The notes under the pieces were generated by a model that saw nothing but the letters and a program-made list of their open reading frames with translations, did no database searches and was not told the DNA's origin. 24,067 nt of DNA from Capsulimonadaceae bacterium (lineage in GTDB: Bacteria > Armatimonadota > Armatimonadia > Armatimonadales > Capsulimonadaceae). The stretch spans positions 1 to 24,067 of the forward strand of contig DASXUY010000059.1 of assembly GCA_036504535.1 (NCBI GenBank). The letters run 5' to 3'. Positions 8,667 through 19,843 of this stretch are shown piece by piece; the first letter of the stretch is position 1, and each line of letters opens with the position of its first letter. Made by a program: the position numbers and the translations under genes.

Positions 8667-10238
8667 TTACCTACTGTTAAGCCTCTGTGTTCGTATCAAC
8701 GCGATCTTGTCTGGAATACCAAAGCAATACTCGTCTTTCGTCACAGCAAGTTTTTCAATACGTTCTAGATCAGATTCGGTAAAGTAATTCGGACAGTACT
8801 GTAGCAATCCACTTAACAGCATGAGTACGTTGCTCAGACCAAACATCCGGTCGTCGCCTGCAGGCAGCGCTGAGCTAGCCTTCTCAAGCGCTTCACCCAA
8901 GAAGCCGAGCCTCATAAGTACGGTAACGATGAAATACGATATTCCTAAATATCCGTTCGCCGGGTTTAGCCTCTCCAGTAGAATAGCAACAATGCGGAGT
9001 TTGTCTGCGGATGACGATATTCGATTATAATACGCAACGAGACCCTCCACATTTTCAGATACTATGGTTGCTTCTTCCGCCGGGCAGCCCGCATTTGGCC
9101 GTGGCGGCGGAGTGATGGCGCCGCGTCCCAACACTGTGCGTCCTCCCTGGACCACGGAAATGCTTCCGAGTCCCCCAACTCGACGTCCGCAGCGCCTATA
9201 GTGATCTGCTTCCACTTTGAGAAAAGATACGACATCTCGTTCGACAGGATCGGCTATCGAATATAGGAACTCTTCAGGTTCTTTCTTAGCCTTGGGAGAG
9301 TCGAATGATCGGGACCTGAACGATACTCTTTTTAGGACATGCTTGTTTCCAAACTGGTCAAAGAGGATTACGGCATGAGCAATAAAGTGTGAATTAGCGT
9401 CTATTACTGGTGGCAGCAGCCAGAAATTAACTGAAACAGTCCGTGACTGTCCTGCGGGTATATCAAAAGTGCCCAAGATGGAATCCGATGCGTCCCCGCC
9501 AACCATTACGACGCCGACTTCGCGCTTAGTCCCCAAGAAACCGTGCGCAAGCACTGCCTTCGTTATCCTGATTGAATAGCTCGACACATTAGTCGCAAGT
9601 ACGAGCCCAGCGATTTGCATAGCAGGTCGATCGATGTTACCGCCCAAATGCCACCAGCACGAACCTAACGGCTTTTCGGCAAGTCGCAGGGTACAGGCGG
9701 GAACGGCTGAGGATACGTCTCTATGGCGAGAATGCTGCTCGCGCTGATGGTTTAGGCTTGAAGCATTAGGAAAGCTGGCCTGTTTTGTACCAGCACTTAC
9801 GAATTGCGCCGATAGGCCATGGCGGCCGTCGTGTACCCGTTCCAAAATCTTTCGTGCCACCTCGTCCACACCAGCCCTTGAATTCACCGCCACAGCGTCT
9901 GCGAGAGGAGGTGAATACTTGAGTACATCTTCCTTTTCTACTCCGTGCCAGATTGGAAGGATTATTCGTTCACCATCAATCATCTCTCGCGCTACGAGGC
10001 CGTCCAATTCCCGACGAGTCCATTTCTTTGCAAAGAAATCTTTGCTTAAGACCACAATACCGAAACGTGACAGAGAAAGGCCGTTATCTATTGATTCCGA
10101 AAGACTATCTCCAATCCGCAGCGAGATCTCGTCGTACCAAACTGAAAGGTCCGCTTCTAGCAGCTTTTTCGCGAGCGGACGTACAAAGTCGTTCTTGTCT
10201 TCCCATGCATGGCTAATGAATGTGTCGTAGATTTTCAT
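8667..10238 (-). CDS. TIR-domain protein with an unassigned ~370-aa C-terminal region
   Basis: From ATG 10238 it reads MKIYDTFISHAWEDKNDFVRPLAKKLLEADLSVWYDEISLRIGDSL...GIVVLSKDFFAKKWTRRELDGLV, the bacterial TIR layout with the W-x3-E segment. The ORF-track start at 10316 is TTG. Hand-counted lines in the gene are 40-45 % GC. Confidence 0.85.
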   Translation of the reverse strand: MKIYDTFISHAWEDKNDFVRPLAKKLLEADLSVWYDEISLRIGDSLSESIDNGLSLSRFGIVVLSKDFFAKKWTRRELDGLVAREMIDGERIILPIWHGVEKEDVLKYSPPLADAVAVNSRAGVDEVARKILERVHDGRHGLSAQFVSAGTKQASFPNASSLNHQREQHSRHRDVSSAVPACTLRLAEKPLGSCWWHLGGNIDRPAMQIAGLVLATNVSSYSIRITKAVLAHGFLGTKREVGVVMVGGDASDSILGTFDIPAGQSRTVSVNFWLLPPVIDANSHFIAHAVILFDQFGNKHVLKRVSFRSRSFDSPKAKKEPEEFLYSIADPVERDVVSFLKVEADHYRRCGRRVGGLGSISVVQGGRTVLGRGAITPPPRPNAGCPAEEATIVSENVEGLVAYYNRISSSADKLRIVAILLERLNPANGYLGISYFIVTVLMRLGFLGEALEKASSALPAGDDRMFGLSNVLMLLSGLLQYCPNYFTESDLERIEKLAVTKDEYCFGIPDKIALIRTQRLNSR

Positions 10239-10556
10239 GTTCGCTAAGCTGCCCGTTTGGAATTTAAGCCTACAAAGGATGCCGCTTGTGTAAGCTGGAA
10301 GTTTAGAAGCGCTCAAATTGTGGTGGTGTGAAAGACTCGTGACAATCCAACGACAACCTCGACAAATATGTGCTCACATTGAAAGATTGTACTCGCCTTT
10401 ACAATACCCTCCAGATAATGGCTATGTTGCAACGCAAGCGTTGACTACCTTATCTCGGGAGCCCTACTCCGCTGAAGTAGCAATGGGAACTAATACAACG
10501 AAAAACATTACGCAAGTTCGTCATTATTATATATTTTGAAATTTAGTAGTAATTAG

Positions 10557-10585: not shown

Positions 10586-10889
10586 AATAGCACAAGCGAA
10601 TCACCCAAAGCGGCCGCCTAAATGCGTTCAAACGCATCAGCACCTTTACAACCTGACACAACACGTTCGCACGCAGTCACAACCATACGCGGGGGTCGCG
10701 GAATAATCCGCAACTAGCAGCAGAGATAGCTGGACCGAACACCCGAGACGGTAACAACTCGTGACCAGCTTCCGCGCCAGTCCTATGGGTCGTAGACCCA
10801 ATCCTCAATAACTAGCCATGGCTTTCAAGCCGTGGTGGCTTCGTCATCGACTAATTACCAACACCTGGTCAAATCCGCCCAATCCGACC

Positions 10890-10929
10890 GTCGCGCAAAA
10901 CCGTAACCTAACCCACAATTTTGCGCGAC
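10890..10929. repeat. 11-bp perfect inverted repeat in the non-coding tract
   Basis: GTCGCGCAAAA (10890-10900) and TTTTGCGCGAC (10919-10929) are separated by 18 nt. The AATTTTGC motif recurs at 10917, 10951 and 11014, and the palindrome GTTGCAATTTTGCAAC lies at 11009-11024. Confidence 0.6.
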
Positions 10930-11065
10930 CTTTGCAGCCACTATTCGCCGAATTTTGCGCACTTTCGCCATCACCACGCTCAATACGCAATGCAAAAAAA
11001 CGAATCGTGTTGCAATTTTGCAACGCAATCAGCCACCAACTCACCCCGCGATTACAACTCTGACT

Positions 11066-11091
11066 CCCCTCTCCTTATCGTAGGAGAGGGG
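11066..11091. repeat. GC-rich hairpin CCCCTCTCC/GGAGAGGGG
   Basis: 9-bp stem (11066-11074 with 11083-11091), loop TTATCGTA, followed by CTGGGGGTGAGG. Confidence 0.5.
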
Positions 11092-11141
11092 CTGGGGGTG
11101 AGGTCATCGTCAACAACATCAAGCATTAGGTGAAGTACTCC

Positions 11142-11314
11142 CAAGCCCCCCGCCGCCCCTACAACGATCCAACGACACGTTGGCGCCGTCCGCGCAGGAC
11201 GCCCGCCCGGCGAGGGCATCTTCTCCTCCAAAACATCCCGCTCGCCTCGCCAAGAGGTGGTCGGACAACAGAGTCCCTGCTTGCGGGGGCGGTGAGCTTT
11301 GAGCGAGCGGGGGC
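11142..11314 (+). repeat. Intergenic repeat family, copy C
   Basis: Same 5' block as copy B and same 3' block as copy A. It ends at the mutS stop codon (CTA at 11315-11317). Hairpin GTCCCTGC-TT-GCGGGGGC at 11273-11290. Confidence 0.6.
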
Positions 11315-13963
11315 CTATTTCTCCCCGATCCGCCGCTTCATATCGTACAGCAGCGTCAGCGCCTCGATTGGGCTGAGCGTGGCCACATCTAGCTGCTCGA
11401 TCTCGTCGATCACGGGGTGACGCTCGGTCTCGAACAGCGTCAGCTGAAGCTTCTTCTTCGTGGACTGGATATCGACACCCTTCTTACCGCTCTGCTTGTC
11501 GCGAGCTTCGAGGCCCTTGAGGATCTCGGCGGCGCGCTGCAGGACCGTCTCCGGGAGGCCGGCGAGGCGGGCGACCTGCACACCATACGATTTGTCGGTG
11601 CCGCCGGGCATGATCTTGCGCAGCCAGACAATGTGGTCTCCCTGCTCTTTCACCGCGATCCGGTAGTTCTTGGCCCCGTCCAGCTGCTTTTCGAGATCGT
11701 TGAGCTGGTGGTAATGCGTCGCAAACAACGTTTTCGCGCCGATTGCGTGCAAGTATTCGGCAATGGCCCACGCGAGCGCGAGGCCGTCGAATGTGCTGGT
11801 GCCGCGACCGACTTCGTCGAGGACCACCAAGCTGCGGTCGGTAGCATTGTTAAGGATATTCGCGGTCTCGTTCATCTCGACCATGAATGTGGACTGGCCC
11901 GACGCTAAATCGTCCTGCGCCCCCACCCGCGTGAAGATGCGGTCCACGAGCCCAATCGTGGCGCTGTCGGCGGGGATGAACGAACCCATCTGGGCGAGCA
12001 GCACACACACCGCAACCTGACGCAAGTACGTAGACTTGCCTGCGGCGTTGGGGCCGGTGATGATATGCAGCCGCTCCTTGTCGCCGTCCATGGATGCGTC
12101 GTTCGGCACAAACATCGTGCCGGAGTGCAGCTGTTCGACCACCGGATGGCGCGCGTTCTTCAAGATCAGAATCTGGCTGTCGTCGATCACTGGCCGCGAG
12201 AAACGAAGTTGGATCGCCGTCTCCGCGAGGCCGGACAGCACGTCGATACGCGAAATGGCGGCGGCAAGCTTCAACAGCGCGCCGGACCAGCGTTCGGCAA
12301 TCAGTTCGCGAAGCTGAGTGAAGAGCCGGTATTCCAGTTCCACAATCCGCTCCTCGGCACCAAGCACCTGCGCTTCGTGCTCCTTGAGGGCGGGCGTGAT
12401 AAACCGTTCCGCGTTAGCCGTGGTCTGCTTGCGGATATAGTCGTCGGGCACCGCCGCGATATTGATCTTGCTGACCTCGATATAGTAGCCAAAGACGTTG
12501 TTGTAGCCAACCTTGAGGGTGCGAACTCCGGTACGCTCCCGCTCAGCCTCTTCGATCGCGGCGATAAACTGCTTTCCGCCCGACCGAAGCACGCGCAGCT
12601 CATCGAGATCGGCGTTGAACCCGTCCTTGATCAGCCCGCCGTCGCGCAGCACCAGCGGAGGATCGTCGGCGACGGCGCGGGTGAGCAGGTCCAGCAACTC
12701 CACGGGCGCGGCGGCGATATTGTCCCGCTCGGCAGACAGCGACGTCCCTTCGCGAAGCCGTCCCAGCGACGCAGTCAGCGCCCCGGCCTGCTCGATTGAG
12801 TTCCGCAGGGCGATCAGGTCCCGCGCATTGGCCGCCCCGGAGCAGACCCGCGCCGTGAGCCGCTCAAGGTCGGACACCCCGCGCAGCGCATCCCGCGTGT
12901 CACCGCGCAGCAGCGAGTCTGCGGCGAACTCGCCCACCGCATCGTGGCGCTCACGGATACTGTCGATACTCAGCAGCGGCTGGTCGAGCCACTTACGCAA
13001 GAGCCGTCCGCCCATCGATGTGATCGTCTTGTCGACGATATGAATCAAGCTCTTGGTGCGAGATCCGTCAAGCTGAGACTGCGTCAGCTCAAGGTTGCGG
13101 CGTGTGGCGGCATCGAGCACCATAAAATGCTCCGTCGAATACGCGCCCAGGGTCCGAATATGGGTCAATGCGCTCTGGTGGGTCGCCTTGACATAGTCAA
13201 GCAGCAGCGCTGCGGCATCCACCCCAGCGCTGAGGTCTTCGCACCCAAACCCGCGCAGCGATTGCGTGCCGAAATGGTCCAACAACTGCTGGCGGGTCGA
13301 TCGGCGCTGCTCTTTGAATGCGTGCAGCGTGACCACGGCGGAACAGTTGGCACGGATGCCGTCGATCAACGCAGGGTCGGCGTCGGGGCTCACCAGGCAC
13401 TCGGACGGCTGCAACCGTACTATCTCCTCGATCACCTTCTCGATCCCGCGATCGTAAGGTATCTCGGTGGTTAGGAACTCGCCGGTACTCACATCGACGA
13501 CGCCCACTCCGCTGGGGACCCGTTCACCGGTCACCGCGGCGACAAGGTAGTTGTTGCGACGCGCATCCAGCATCGCGTCCTCGACCACGGTGCCGGGGGT
13601 GAGGACACGGGTTACACGACGCTTCACCAGGCCCTTGGCGAGTTTCGGATCCTCCACCTGATCGCACAAAGCGACCTTGAACCCGCGCGTGATCAGCCGC
13701 GCGATATACCGCTCGACCGCATGGTACGGCACCCCCGCCATCGGGATTCGCCCACCATGCTGCTTGTCCTCGCGACCGGTGAGCGTGATCTCAAGCTCCC
13801 GCGAAACGATTTCGGCGTCGACACCATACGCCTCGAAGAAGTCGCCGACACGCATCAGCAGGATGATATCAGGGCGCTCCTCCTTGACCTCAAAATACTG
13901 CCGCATCAGCGGCGTAAGGGCATCGAGAGAGTACTGGGAGTTGTCGGTGGCGGGTTTGGTCAT
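11315..13963 (-). CDS. mutS: DNA mismatch repair protein MutS (canonical MutS1)
   Basis: 882 aa. It has the GDFFEAYG mismatch-recognition Phe-x-Glu motif, GPNAAGKST Walker A, STFMVEM, and DEVGRGTSTFDG Walker B. Confidence 0.95.
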   Translation of the reverse strand: MTKPATDNSQYSLDALTPLMRQYFEVKEERPDIILLMRVGDFFEAYGVDAEIVSRELEITLTGREDKQHGGRIPMAGVPYHAVERYIARLITRGFKVALCDQVEDPKLAKGLVKRRVTRVLTPGTVVEDAMLDARRNNYLVAAVTGERVPSGVGVVDVSTGEFLTTEIPYDRGIEKVIEEIVRLQPSECLVSPDADPALIDGIRANCSAVVTLHAFKEQRRSTRQQLLDHFGTQSLRGFGCEDLSAGVDAAALLLDYVKATHQSALTHIRTLGAYSTEHFMVLDAATRRNLELTQSQLDGSRTKSLIHIVDKTITSMGGRLLRKWLDQPLLSIDSIRERHDAVGEFAADSLLRGDTRDALRGVSDLERLTARVCSGAANARDLIALRNSIEQAGALTASLGRLREGTSLSAERDNIAAAPVELLDLLTRAVADDPPLVLRDGGLIKDGFNADLDELRVLRSGGKQFIAAIEEAERERTGVRTLKVGYNNVFGYYIEVSKINIAAVPDDYIRKQTTANAERFITPALKEHEAQVLGAEERIVELEYRLFTQLRELIAERWSGALLKLAAAISRIDVLSGLAETAIQLRFSRPVIDDSQILILKNARHPVVEQLHSGTMFVPNDASMDGDKERLHIITGPNAAGKSTYLRQVAVCVLLAQMGSFIPADSATIGLVDRIFTRVGAQDDLASGQSTFMVEMNETANILNNATDRSLVVLDEVGRGTSTFDGLALAWAIAEYLHAIGAKTLFATHYHQLNDLEKQLDGAKNYRIAVKEQGDHIVWLRKIMPGGTDKSYGVQVARLAGLPETVLQRAAEILKGLEARDKQSGKKGVDIQSTKKKLQLTLFETERHPVIDEIEQLDVATLSPIEALTLLYDMKRRIGEK

Positions 13964-14175: not shown

Positions 14176-14997
14176 TTAGCCGGGAGATGGCTTTTGGACA
14201 AGCTTCTTAAGCAGGGACTCGATTGTCGTGTTGAGGATATGGACGCCGCCATCATCGAGATCGTGACGCTGCCCATATGCCATAAAGGCGTCTCCGTCGA
14301 TCTCTTCCGTATCGATGTCACGCTCCGCCGTCATAGGTTCGCCAAGTAGCGTTACCCCGAGGGGCATCCGGTGCAGCCGCGTATACGCCATGCTGAAGTA
14401 ATCATTGGGCCACATGTCATCATCGTCCTCATCCGTGTCGCGGCTCGACATTAACCCTGAGTCGACGGGCCAGTCTCCTGGCGTCCAGAGGAGACGCTTC
14501 TTTTCCAGCTCGAATACATGGATGACGCCGACATCTTCGTCATAAGCGATGGCGACGACACGAGAAGGGGCATAGGTTTCGACGGTAGCATATCCGTCGT
14601 CGATATACTGCTGGTAGTTGGGCTTCGAGCGCGTTGATCGAAATTCGTTTTCTTCCCACGCGTGAAACGAACTGACGATGGTGGCAATGAGTGCCGGTAT
14701 AACTAAGAGAAGCGCCGCTCCCGCGAGGTTCCCATTGTGATCTGCGTGGGCAATGCCGTCGTAGATACCATAACCGCAGGCTACAGCAATCGCGGCCCAA
14801 ATTGCCGGTTTAATCCATAAGGCACGCGACGGCGGAGATGGAGGCGGCTGGTTTTGAAGGTCCTGCAGTGCCGCGATCTCGCGGTCAGTTAGCGGCCGCT
14901 CGTGCGTCGCGAACGGCGGCACATCGCCGGGTCGGACATGCGGCTGCTTGACGGGCGGCGGCGGCCAGTTCTCGTGGGTATATCCAGAAGCACTCAT
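14176..14997 (-). CDS. Paralog 1 of a Pro-rich two-TM protein family, function unknown
   Basis: Start chosen at ATG 14997 (MSASGYTHENWPPPPVKQPHVRPGDVPPFATHERPLTDREIAAL) because it aligns with the N-termini of paralogs 2 and 3. The track start at 15084 is GTG. It shares DDGYA..ETYAP.RVV, WPNDYFSMAYTRLHR and ILNTTIESLL with the other two. Confidence 0.7.
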   Translation of the reverse strand: MSASGYTHENWPPPPVKQPHVRPGDVPPFATHERPLTDREIAALQDLQNQPPPSPPSRALWIKPAIWAAIAVACGYGIYDGIAHADHNGNLAGAALLLVIPALIATIVSSFHAWEENEFRSTRSKPNYQQYIDDGYATVETYAPSRVVAIAYDEDVGVIHVFELEKKRLLWTPGDWPVDSGLMSSRDTDEDDDDMWPNDYFSMAYTRLHRMPLGVTLLGEPMTAERDIDTEEIDGDAFMAYGQRHDLDDGGVHILNTTIESLLKKLVQKPSPG

Positions 14998-15083
14998 GCC
15001 GATGATTTCGCCAGCGTTACGATATATTCCTTCAATGGACGGCAATTTGACTGTGTGGCTAGTGGACGTTATGGCCACCAGCA

Positions 15084-15884
15084 CTACTTACCCGGAGAGC
15101 TAGCGAAACTGGCGAGCAGATCGTCAATGGTGGTGTTCAGAATACGGAAGTCGTCTGGGTCACAATCATCACTCTGCAGAAAAGCCGTGAACTTGGCGTC
15201 GTCTATGACGGATTTATCAGTAGCGTCAACCAGGCGCTCAGGATCCATATAGTCTCCGTGCCGCGTCACTGACATAAACTTGCGGTGAAGCCTTGAATAG
15301 TTAACCGAAAAATAGGTGTTGGGCCAACACGAATAGTCATCGCAATCCTCCTCCACAATGCCATATTCAAAGCTGTCGGGCGGACAATAGAGCAGCAGCA
15401 TATCGTCGAGTTCGTAGAGTTGGATTGGGTAAACGTCAAAGCCTAGATTTCCGTCAATAGTGATGACGCGACGCGGAGCGTATGTCTCCTCTATGGCATA
15501 TCCATCATCCAAGATTGCCCGATTACGCTCACGGCGGGCGGAAAAGGCGGGGGAGTTGATTTCAGAAACTTCGTAGAAGCATTCCTGAGCGTTAACCGCG
15601 CCATAGACCGCAAATAAAACAGCTAAGGCTACTGAAGCTACCGATTTGCTAGGATCAAAATAGCATGCCACCACGGCGAAAAGTGCAATCAGCGCGAATA
15701 CTATGCCCTTAATGCCTAACTGCGATGTGAGAAAGGGTGGCGGAGGAGTGGATCTTTGTCGCCAAGCTGCGGCCTCCTCAGGCGTGAATGGCCGCTCGTT
15801 AGTCACTATTGGTGGCGCATCCGGTGGGCGAGGACGCGGTGCAATTTCTGGTTCCGCCGGCCCGTTGTATTGAGTCTCATCCAT
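15084..15884 (-). CDS. Paralog 2 of the Pro-rich two-TM protein family, function unknown
   Basis: MDETQYNGPAEPEIAPRPRPPDAPPIVTNERPFTPEEAAAW, then two hydrophobic segments (GIVFALIALFAVVACYF and VASVALAVLFAVYGAV). The C-terminal domain contains AILDDGYAIEETYAPRRV, LYELDD, WPNTYFSVNYSRLHR and ILNTTIDDLLASF. Confidence 0.8.
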   Translation of the reverse strand: MDETQYNGPAEPEIAPRPRPPDAPPIVTNERPFTPEEAAAWRQRSTPPPPFLTSQLGIKGIVFALIALFAVVACYFDPSKSVASVALAVLFAVYGAVNAQECFYEVSEINSPAFSARRERNRAILDDGYAIEETYAPRRVITIDGNLGFDVYPIQLYELDDMLLLYCPPDSFEYGIVEEDCDDYSCWPNTYFSVNYSRLHRKFMSVTRHGDYMDPERLVDATDKSVIDDAKFTAFLQSDDCDPDDFRILNTTIDDLLASFASSPGK

Positions 15885-15968
15885 GGGGACGATTACGACG
15901 TCGCGAGACGGATTCCTCCATCGGCTCCGACCTTAAGGGTCTTATTTGAGCTAAATTCAGCCGCCAGG

Positions 15969-16754
15969 CTAACCGCTAGCGCGCTGCAAGAAACTGGCGA
16001 GCAGATCGTCCAGCGTTCCATTCAGAATGCAGAAGTCGCCGGGCTCGATATCATCACGCTCCAGAAACGCGTCGAACTTATCCGCGTCAACCACCGCCGT
16101 GTCGGTTGAGTCAACCAGGCGGTCGGGTTCCATCGCGTCGCCGTGGAGCGTCACCGACATCAGGACGCGGTCAAGCCTCGAATAGCTGACGGTGAAGTAG
16201 GTGTTAGGCCAAGGAGCGTCGGCACCGAGTTCATTTTCGAACAGCCCATCACAATCTATATAGGGAGGGCAATAGAGCACCCGGGTATCGTCCAGTTCAT
16301 AGAGATAGAAGTCCGATTCCCACTCGACGGTGACCACCCGCCGGGGAGCAAAAGTCTCCTCGATGGCATACCCATCGTCCAAAATCGCCTGGTTACGTTC
16401 GCGGCGAGCAGCGACAGTCGGGGAGTTGGCATGCGGGATCTGCGCAAAGCTTGCCCAGGCGTTGATGACGCCAATGACCATAAATAGGATCGCTGGACCT
16501 GCGGGAATTCCGGGCCGAGTGGGTTCCAACGAGATCGCGAGCAAACCGCACACGGCAATCATCGCCCAAACCGCGCCCTTGACCTTTAGGCCCCACGCGG
16601 GAACAGGCGGCGGCGGTGTGGCGAGCCGCTGCCACGCTGCAACCTCCTCGGCGGTGAACGGCCGTTCGATGCTGACCATTGGTGGCGCATCAGGTGGACG
16701 CATTCGCGGAGCAGGCTTCGGTGTCGGCGGCCAATGGTCGGCGGTTTCGTTCAT
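15969..16754 (-). CDS. Paralog 3 of the Pro-rich two-TM protein family, function unknown
   Basis: MNETADHWPPTPKPAPRMRPPDAPPMVSIERPFTAEEVAAW. It is colinear with paralog 2 over the full length (AILDDGYAIEETFAPRRV, LYELDD, WPNTYFTVSYSRLDR, ILNGTLDDLLASF). An in-frame TAA 12 nt upstream fixes the ATG. Confidence 0.8.
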   Translation of the reverse strand: MNETADHWPPTPKPAPRMRPPDAPPMVSIERPFTAEEVAAWQRLATPPPPVPAWGLKVKGAVWAMIAVCGLLAISLEPTRPGIPAGPAILFMVIGVINAWASFAQIPHANSPTVAARRERNQAILDDGYAIEETFAPRRVVTVEWESDFYLYELDDTRVLYCPPYIDCDGLFENELGADAPWPNTYFTVSYSRLDRVLMSVTLHGDAMEPDRLVDSTDTAVVDADKFDAFLERDDIEPGDFCILNGTLDDLLASFLQRASG

Positions 16755-16803
16755 GGATGACGATTACGCCAATTAGATGCGTATTCCTCCCGTCACAGCG
16801 AGC

Positions 16804-16830
16804 AGACCCCGCTGGCCGACAGCGGGGTCT
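16804..16830 (-). terminator. 11-bp perfect hairpin downstream of the catalase gene
   Basis: AGACCCCGCTG (16804-16814) pairs with CAGCGGGGTCT (16820-16830), 5-nt loop, 26 nt after the katE stop. There is no clear U-run. Confidence 0.45.
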
Positions 16831-19195: not shown

Positions 19196-19843
19196 CTACC
19201 CGCCGGACGTGCCCCGGTGAAGCTGATCGTACGCGACGAGGCTCATGATGGGGCGGCACGCGTGCCCCTTGTTGTAACGCCGGGTGACCGCGGCGATCTC
19301 GTCTGCCCGGATGGTTGGGTCGCGCCACTCACGCCGAGGGCGAGCCTTACTGGCGAGGCCGCGATAGCCGTGGATAAAGCTGCCGATCTGCTGCAGGTTC
19401 TCCGGGTTGCTTGTCGGCGTCCCGGGCCACACGCAGTGAATGTGCGGGCCAATGCCAGCAGGGCCGCCTGGAGCCCGTGGGCCGCGATGCCAGGCGGCGA
19501 TCCCCTGAAGGCGCAGCTTCCGCGTGTCGGCGTCGGCGTTTCGCAGCGGATCGATCAGGACGTCGAACGCGCATCCAAATGGGTGGCCATCAACCCTTCC
19601 CGATGCCCTGTGGGTTGAGCCGCTAAACCATGACGACTTGTTGCCCGCGCTCACCACCTGCCCCACCCGATCCAGTCCGCCGGGGCCAAGCGCGCGCACG
19701 ATAGCGTTCGCCGTGCCAGGCGGAAGCTGCTGTAGCATCGGATTGGGCGGCCCAACGCCAGCGCTACGAAACAGAATGACCAGTGCCACTGTACAAATGA
19801 CTATTGCGGCTATAAGCCATGGAGTTCGCTTTCGGTTTCTCAT
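19196..19843 (-). CDS. Membrane-anchored or secreted protein with LAS/M15-like zinc-peptidase motifs (putative cell-wall peptidase)
   Basis: N-terminal signal anchor (RKRTPWLIAAIVICTVALVILF). GHPFGCAFD fits H-x6-D / HxxGxAxD, and GPHIHCVW supplies H-x-H, the LAS-family metal ligand pattern. The call rests on short motifs only. Confidence 0.4.
   Translation of the reverse strand: MRNRKRTPWLIAAIVICTVALVILFRSAGVGPPNPMLQQLPPGTANAIVRALGPGGLDRVGQVVSAGNKSSWFSGSTHRASGRVDGHPFGCAFDVLIDPLRNADADTRKLRLQGIAAWHRGPRAPGGPAGIGPHIHCVWPGTPTSNPENLQQIGSFIHGYRGLASKARPRREWRDPTIRADEIAAVTRRYNKGHACRPIMSLVAYDQLHRGTSGG

Follow-up and report, generated by a model that had tools for sequence, protein, structure and literature searches.

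Three tandem paralogs of an accessory Armatimonadota family between katE and mutS: predicted membrane-tethered acidic proteins with a tentative role in paralog-specific binding

In the bPH_2 family (YdbS-YdbT, PF03703) a two-helix transmembrane (TM) hairpin at the N-terminus has both its ends inside and leads into a small beta-rich domain in the cytoplasm, made of 4 + 3 strands and a capping helix. A similar succession, a TM hairpin and then a cytoplasmic beta domain with a C-terminal helix, is seen in the structure models of p2, the middle one of three paralogous genes (p1, p2 and p3) lying between the catalase gene katE and mutS on contig DASXUY010000059.1 of a Capsulimonadaceae bacterium (phylum Armatimonadota; assembly GCA_036504535.1). 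The whole stretch analysed, 24,067 nucleotides long, is termed the window. Neither bPH_2 nor the window family has an assigned function. The same holds for DUF3592 (PF12158) and YcxB (PF14317), which are likewise membrane-anchored small beta-rich domains, and all three families were tested directly because the strand order of the p2 domain resembles that of a PH-like domain behind a TM hairpin. The bPH_2 model gave 0 matches in a six-frame genome search with positive controls, the Pfam scans were empty and a PH-like fold of the soluble domain was not found. The DUF3592 and YcxB models both matched other contigs of the genome in the six-frame search and not contig 59 at 14-17 kb; one DUF3592 protein was a weak structural match in BFVD with an E value of 0.34, which is not significant.

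Cap15 of the cyclic oligonucleotide-based antiphage signalling system (CBASS) and CARF-2TM of type III CRISPR resemble the window family in their two N-terminal TM helices, compact cytoplasmic beta domain and accessory distribution; here, however, no cyclase or CRISPR genes are adjacent and no fold match was obtained. The pore-forming colicin immunity proteins and T4 Imm are also small inner-membrane proteins that work through binding at the membrane and may form diverging arrays. These proteins adjoin a toxin or sit on phages or plasmids, whereas neither setting was found for the window family, and they lack a folded cytoplasmic domain of 155 aa.

The three genes are very probably old, intact tandem duplicates, formed in place, of an accessory family of the Armatimonadota. 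An earlier note, made from the DNA letters, had described three consecutive minus-strand paralogs of one architecture between katE and mutS, and the open reading frames (ORFs) and alignments agreed with this description. The six-frame search with p2 recovered p3 at 54% identity (E 3e-84) and p1 at 38% (E 2e-36), values that place the similarity of the three far beyond chance; no further p2-like copies were found by this search in the 7.0-Mb assembly. Pairwise alignment gave 35-38% identity between p1 and the other two, so that p2 and p3 are close and p1 is diverged, as the note had it, and the acidic insertion it had seen in p1 is real. The alignment also placed its blocks ERP[FL]T..E.AA[WL], [FY]EL[DE], WPN.YF[ST]..Y.RL.R and ILN.T...LL in p1, p2 and p3. 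The block DDGYA.EET stood for p2 and p3 and failed for p1, which has DDGYATVET. The two hydrophobic helices of each protein were recovered by hydropathy. The C-terminal domain is acidic as described; its length is about 155-165 aa instead of the approximately 170 aa given before.

Between p2 and p3 the synonymous divergence (dS) is about 1.6, at which synonymous sites are saturated, and the ratio of nonsynonymous to synonymous divergence (dN/dS) comes to about 0.21. By these values the duplicates are old and constrained. Purifying selection acts on the copies, and they have kept a common leader, which is considered below. The most conserved parts of p2 and p3 are the N-terminal motif and the first two strands of the C-terminal domain (75-85% identity), and the least conserved are the TM hairpin (18-25% identity) and the acidic loop. 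This loop, which precedes the WPN motif, varies in length, composition and acidity, and the differences between the paralogs are concentrated there. Across the phylum the N-terminal motif RPFTxxE is the most widely conserved one. Only three columns, G128, F192 and G210 in p2 numbering, were conserved at 90% or more in 21 family members, and Trp-Pro is present in most; no catalytic set of polar residues is conserved family-wide. The members are thus unlikely to be enzymes, and a non-catalytic binding module is suggested by the family-wide conservation of Gly, Phe, Trp and Pro alone.

The topology was assessed from the distribution of charges, the positive-inside rule being the established basis for such assignments. 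Each paralog carries a net charge of about -20 (p3 -19), with Arg/Lys clusters before TM1 and after TM2 (RRERNR). In about 30 family members the inter-helix loops are 0-11 residues long and carry 0-2 positive charges, TM2 is followed by up to 7 Arg/Lys and the median charge of the C-terminal domain is -13. By the positive-inside rule and these clusters the predicted location of both termini is cytoplasmic, and the hairpin would expose almost nothing to the periplasm. The earlier proposal of a common side for the two termini was thereby upheld. A periplasmic sensor role is unlikely, given an external loop of only about 0-11 residues. The inner-membrane anchor of each product would accordingly be the two-helix hairpin, which is poorly conserved, and the parts facing the cytoplasm would be a short conserved N-terminal strand-helix motif and an acidic beta-rich domain of about 155 aa, the latter as seen in the models.

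The AlphaFold2 model of full-length p2, built on a six-sequence alignment, reached a predicted local distance difference test (pLDDT) of 70 and showed a strand at residues 27-32, a helix at 35-45, hairpin helices spanning 53-76 and 82-109, and a C-terminal part rich in beta structure. Refolding of residues 108-266 with a 14-sequence alignment raised the pLDDT to 81, with a predicted TM-score (pTM) of 0.75. The modelled order of this domain is a helix, four strands, the variable acidic loop at low confidence, three strands starting from the WPN motif, a helix, a strand and a helix. The T-x-x-E part of the RPFTxxE motif falls at the start of the modelled helix, and T is replaced by N in Capsulimonas. 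From this spacing at the helix start and the T/N exchange, both of which fit a capping box, we infer that the motif is structural.

The earlier note could not match the domain to any described family, and the library, PDB sequence and Foldseek searches were all empty; no well-characterised family was thus matched. The three paralogs had no match in Pfam, NCBIfam or PADLOC. For 21 diverse members no Pfam match was obtained below an E value of 0.01, and Pfam, PADLOC and PHROGs together gave only scattered sub-threshold matches on the TM segments. The PDB sequences were not matched by the 6- and 21-sequence profiles or by three divergent single members. Foldseek returned only helical-hairpin noise from the PDB for the full-length p2 model, and for the domain model the best E values were 0.096 (PDB) and 0.03 (BFVD), with TM-scores below 0.3. 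The domain is therefore provisionally taken as one without a known fold, the comparison set being the solved structures of the PDB together with BFVD. A literature search returned nothing on the family. Two candidates touching the membrane segment were rejected. A similarity to the MotA/PomA stator appeared in one paralog only (PomA model, 16.5 bits against a cut-off of 341; MotA in the PDB, E 0.26), and two TM helices are present here where four are required; being sub-threshold and confined to the least conserved region, the hairpin similarity was regarded as compositional. The class II holin family PF07332 reached only an E value of 0.11 in 3 of 21 members, with no consistent PHROG match and no phage record.

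The distribution of the family was examined at several depths. HMMER with p2 against 1.84 billion cluster representatives recovered 6 proteins, namely the three of the window and three distant metagenomic relatives at 29-33% identity; the named matches were 'Capsulimonas sp.' and 'Armatimonadetes bacterium'. Within the order, a 10-sequence profile matched 15 of 71 genomes, which belong to 6 of 22 genera. With a 21-sequence profile the count was 27 of 401 genomes across the phylum (17 of 207 genera), about 21 of them with E < 1e-10. The profile searches covered Armatimonadota genomes and the wider search was made with the single sequence p2; so far the family has been seen only in Armatimonadota. 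A pattern scan of the genome contigs did not recover any relative, and the broader alignment proved too divergent for use. A metagenome scan returned one of the known metagenomic relatives (P0005) again and nothing further.

The gene behaves as an accessory element. In one genus (g2) it is carried by only about 4 of 24 genomes. One of these (G011; L047 1488-2178) has the gene between a Zn-dependent alcohol dehydrogenase and an aminotransferase, and in two others of the genus (G315 and G022; L068, L069) the same two flanking genes, at 77-83% DNA identity, are only 150-173 bp apart with no remnant of the family gene. The difference, a 691-bp segment against 150-173 bp with no repeats noted, amounts to the clean presence or absence of a single gene. 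When the flanking ORFs of 16 loci were compared all against all, no neighbour proved common beyond the genus level. The annotated neighbours elsewhere comprise DinB_2, aldo-keto reductase, glutathionylspermidine synthase, SepF, sugar kinase, GDSL lipase, an AraC regulator and DUF4261. The homologs are therefore not single-copy core genes in conserved neighbourhoods; they are patchy, accessory and set in neighbourhoods that are not conserved.

Tandem copies were also found outside the window. In the sister species of the same genus (G001), three diverged copies form a separate array at another locus, interleaved with two ORFs, and the flanks of this array map to different contigs in the window's genome. 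The two extra ORFs (contig 22, L019), at 8963-9466 (167 aa) and 10608-12332 (574 aa), had no Pfam, PHROG or PADLOC match, and the window's genome has no homolog of either; Ala, Arg and Lys are abundant in the 574-aa protein. Two metagenomic members (P0006 and P0004) adjoin on one contig, and two genomes of a distant family (G170 and G253) have one paralog pair each. Next after the latter pair comes a TM protein that contains DUF4261/DUF4026_C (L053 9482-10402; L054 9733-10671), unrelated to the family by hhalign, and nothing was found in the literature on DUF4261/DUF4026_C. The closest metagenomic relatives are the single P0005 (L010 3660-5129) and the tandem P0006 + P0004 (JGI 3300047160 contig), both with a convergent GDSL lipase downstream, which suggests that they may represent the same locus with one copy in one case and two or more in the other.

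A maximum likelihood tree of 35 members was calculated with IQ-TREE under LG+C20; six weak or partial matches were left out (G062, G129, G393, G039, G415 and the third G030 copy). The window trio (G000) formed one clade (support 99/94) and the trio of the sister species a separate clade (98/91). P0004 and P0006 were sisters (98/85), and each copy of the distant family paired with its orthologue. This clade pattern points to at least 3-4 independent tandem duplications: the window trio, the trio of the sister species, the metagenomic pair and an older pair in the distant family. The family has thus been repeatedly gained, lost and tandemly amplified.

The coordinates of the genes, of the p2 segments and of the non-coding elements are summarized in Table 1. 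The ORF of p1 as listed is longer, 14176-15084 (302 aa) with a GTG start at 15084. The ATG at 14997 is most likely the true start, because the 85-nt spacing and the leader motifs of p2 and p3 are then restored; both the p1-p2 and p2-p3 spacers come to about 85 nt. In all three leaders CG[TA]AATC[GA]TC adjoins the ATG and G[GA]AGGAAT stands about 28 nt ahead of it, the latter lying too far upstream for a normal Shine-Dalgarno site. As these motifs have been kept despite synonymous saturation between the copies, the common leader looks like a selected regulatory element, through which the paralogs are probably co-regulated. A sigma-70-like promoter was searched for and none was found for the array. 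The hairpin on the katE side has its stem in both the minimum free energy and the centroid folds and lacks a U tract. It is probably the katE terminator, separating katE from the array, which would therefore not be read through from katE.

Table 1. Positions of the paralogs, the p2 segments, the leaders and the katE-side hairpin in the window
Feature	Coordinates	Strand	Description
Paralog 3 (p3)	15969..16754	minus	261 aa; Pro-rich N-terminus, ERPFTAEEVAAW motif, TM hairpin, acidic C-terminal domain; from the ORF list
Paralog 2 (p2)	15084..15884	minus	266 aa; architecture as p3; copy used for the structure models
Paralog 1 (p1)	14176..14997	minus	273 aa from ATG 14997; diverged copy with an extra acidic insertion
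p2 residues 27-45	15750..15806	minus	conserved N-terminal strand and helix (IVTNERPFTPEEAAAW); T-x-x-E read as a possible helix capping box
p2 residues 53-109	15558..15728	minus	predicted TM hairpin with a very short external loop; hydropathy and model
p2 residues 112-266	15087..15551	minus	predicted acidic cytoplasmic domain; model
p3 leader	16755..16791	minus	GGAGGAAT and CGTAATCGTC
p2 leader	15885..15921	minus	GGAGGAAT and CGTAATCGTC
p1 leader	14998..15033	minus	GAAGGAAT and CGAAATCATC
GC-rich hairpin, 11-bp	16804..16830	minus	AGACCCCGCTG-TCGGC-CAGCGGGGTCT; 26 nt past the katE stop

The neighbours of the array in the window are MutS, the catalase, a GH127 protein, a GGDEF protein and an unannotated 215-aa ORF. 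Of the two flanking genes, katE encodes a long catalase (Pfam Catalase, Catalase-rel and Catalase_C) and the other a MutS protein (E 2e-205 against solved MutS chains in the PDB sequences). The 215-aa ORF adjoins katE (19196-19843, minus strand) and had no Pfam, PHROG or PADLOC match. The absence of an adjacent toxin, secretion or phage gene, as reported in the earlier note, agreed with the Pfam annotation of the window neighbours and with a defence-model scan of the unannotated ones. The katE-mutS position is not a conserved context, because mutS alone is syntenic between the window and the sister species. The G+C content at third codon positions (GC3) is 0.53-0.68 in the three paralogs (p2 lowest, 0.53) against 0.72-0.80 in mutS, katE and GH127. 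A TIR-domain gene (8667-10316), located 3.9 kb from the array beyond mutS, has a GC3 of 0.49, and the flanks of mutS on both sides look like flexible genome. The family was not related by hhalign to this TIR protein, to the DUF4261 neighbour or to the 574-aa ORF of the sister species (probabilities of 0.6% or less).

The reading preferred here, to which a probability of roughly 0.35 is assigned, is that the paralogs would serve in paralog-specific cytoplasmic binding or sequestration at the membrane, in an immunity-like or exclusion-like role; it is chosen, at low confidence, from alternatives that are poorly separated. The acidic domain would act as a non-catalytic binding module and the TM hairpin as a mere tether. 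The paralogs would differ mainly in the variable acidic loop before WPN and in surface residues, and for this reason each copy may capture a different basic partner and keep it at the membrane. The outcome would be sequestration of incoming or endogenous proteins. Recurrent tandem amplification often marks genes engaged with variable partners. The accessory status, recurrent amplification and divergence of the family are compatible with immunity or exclusion, an idea that has no direct support, since an association with toxin, secretion, phage, plasmid or defence genes was found in none of the contexts covered.

Several results weigh against this reading. Old gene conversion is an alternative, although a less parsimonious one, for the clustering of copies within genomes, and the patchiness at phylum level partly reflects the sensitivity limit of the profile. 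As the fold comparison covered the PDB and BFVD, a known fold may have escaped it. No relative was found in the phage, plasmid and viral-contig collections. In about 12 contexts in other genomes the neighbours are metabolic or housekeeping genes, with no recurrent partner, toxin, secretion, phage or defence gene among them; 10 unannotated neighbours from five other genomes and the window, a small sample, had no PADLOC match. The earlier association of the array with immunity-protein arrays or phage exclusion had been drawn from the tandem-diverging pattern alone and was not substantiated by these contexts.

Among the competing explanations, physiological adaptors or stress proteins tethered to the membrane and unconnected with conflict are possible, if somewhat doubtful. 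The acidic domain would then regulate or scaffold a resident membrane or stress process, and the copies would serve dosage or subfunctionalisation. In several genomes some neighbours hint at redox or stress functions (katE here; DinB_2, aldo-keto reductase and glutathionylspermidine synthase in Capsulimonas), synteny of the single copy holds within one genus (g5), purifying selection acts on the copies, and no convincing defence or toxin match was obtained among the members or neighbours scanned. However, these neighbours vary by subfamily with none in common, and the gene is absent from most close relatives, including the clean indel within one genus. In addition, a hairpin lies between katE and the array, and mutS alone is syntenic with the sister species.

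A further reading, rather doubtful at present, would make the paralogs undescribed, phylum-specific protective proteins of a new fold, tethered to the inner membrane and acting in immunity, exclusion or abortive infection. The arrays would then diversify an acidic recognition loop against different invading phage or toxin proteins, to be intercepted at the cytoplasmic face of the membrane.

It is unlikely that the paralogs are single-gene effectors of the abortive-infection type, with the domain as the sensor of a phage or nucleotide signal and an oligomerising hairpin that would damage the membrane, as in the two-TM effectors of CBASS and type III CRISPR. The two N-terminal TM helices and small beta-rich cytoplasmic domain may be alike in both, and the accessory, patchy, single-gene cassette with its low GC3 would fit such a role, as would, at a distance of 4-7 kb on the far side of mutS, the TIR-domain gene and remnants of toxin-antitoxin type. 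PADLOC, however, gave only two isolated, weak sub-threshold matches in the 21 members, one of them to 'CARF, 2 TMs' with an E value of 0.0095 in 1 of 21, and no gene for a signal-generating partner is nearby. The TM segments are the least conserved part of the proteins, no solved beta-barrel effector was among the Foldseek matches and no phage or plasmid carriage was found.

Still less likely is a link to a polymorphic-toxin system, in which the paralogs would be orphan immunity genes and the toxin gene would be elsewhere or lost. Three tandem, diverging paralogs at 35-54% identity in a recurrently amplified accessory family would fit such genes, but no toxin, Rhs, PAAR, type VI or type VII secretion system gene occurred in the approximately 12 contexts, and no Imm family was matched (Pfam on 21 members; NCBIfam). 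The 574-aa ORF after the array of the sister species had neither a toxin-domain match nor a homolog in the window's genome, and proteins of 230-290 aa with a TM hairpin are larger than most immunity proteins and built differently. Finally, decaying or non-functional duplicates, or ORFs that are not real genes, are highly improbable: the GC3 below that of the neighbours and the lack of a detected sigma-70-like promoter are set against three intact frames with a dN/dS of 0.21, protein motifs conserved across the phylum, a confident domain model and conserved leaders.

The Armatimonadota are poorly studied and their lineage-specific biology is almost unexplored. The points of interest in this family are the absence of a sequence or fold relative in the searched libraries, its behaviour as a gain-and-loss cassette and its tandem amplification on at least 3-4 occasions. 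The term new, as applied to it, means that no relation to a described family or solved structure was detected, and does not itself imply new biology. Cultured relatives exist, among them Capsulimonas with a single-copy homolog, and the family is therefore experimentally tractable. If the fold is truly new, an extra domain would be added to the catalogue of membrane-tethered cytoplasmic modules, and if a role in conflict holds true, the family would represent a type of defence or immunity that is missed by the current defence-finders.

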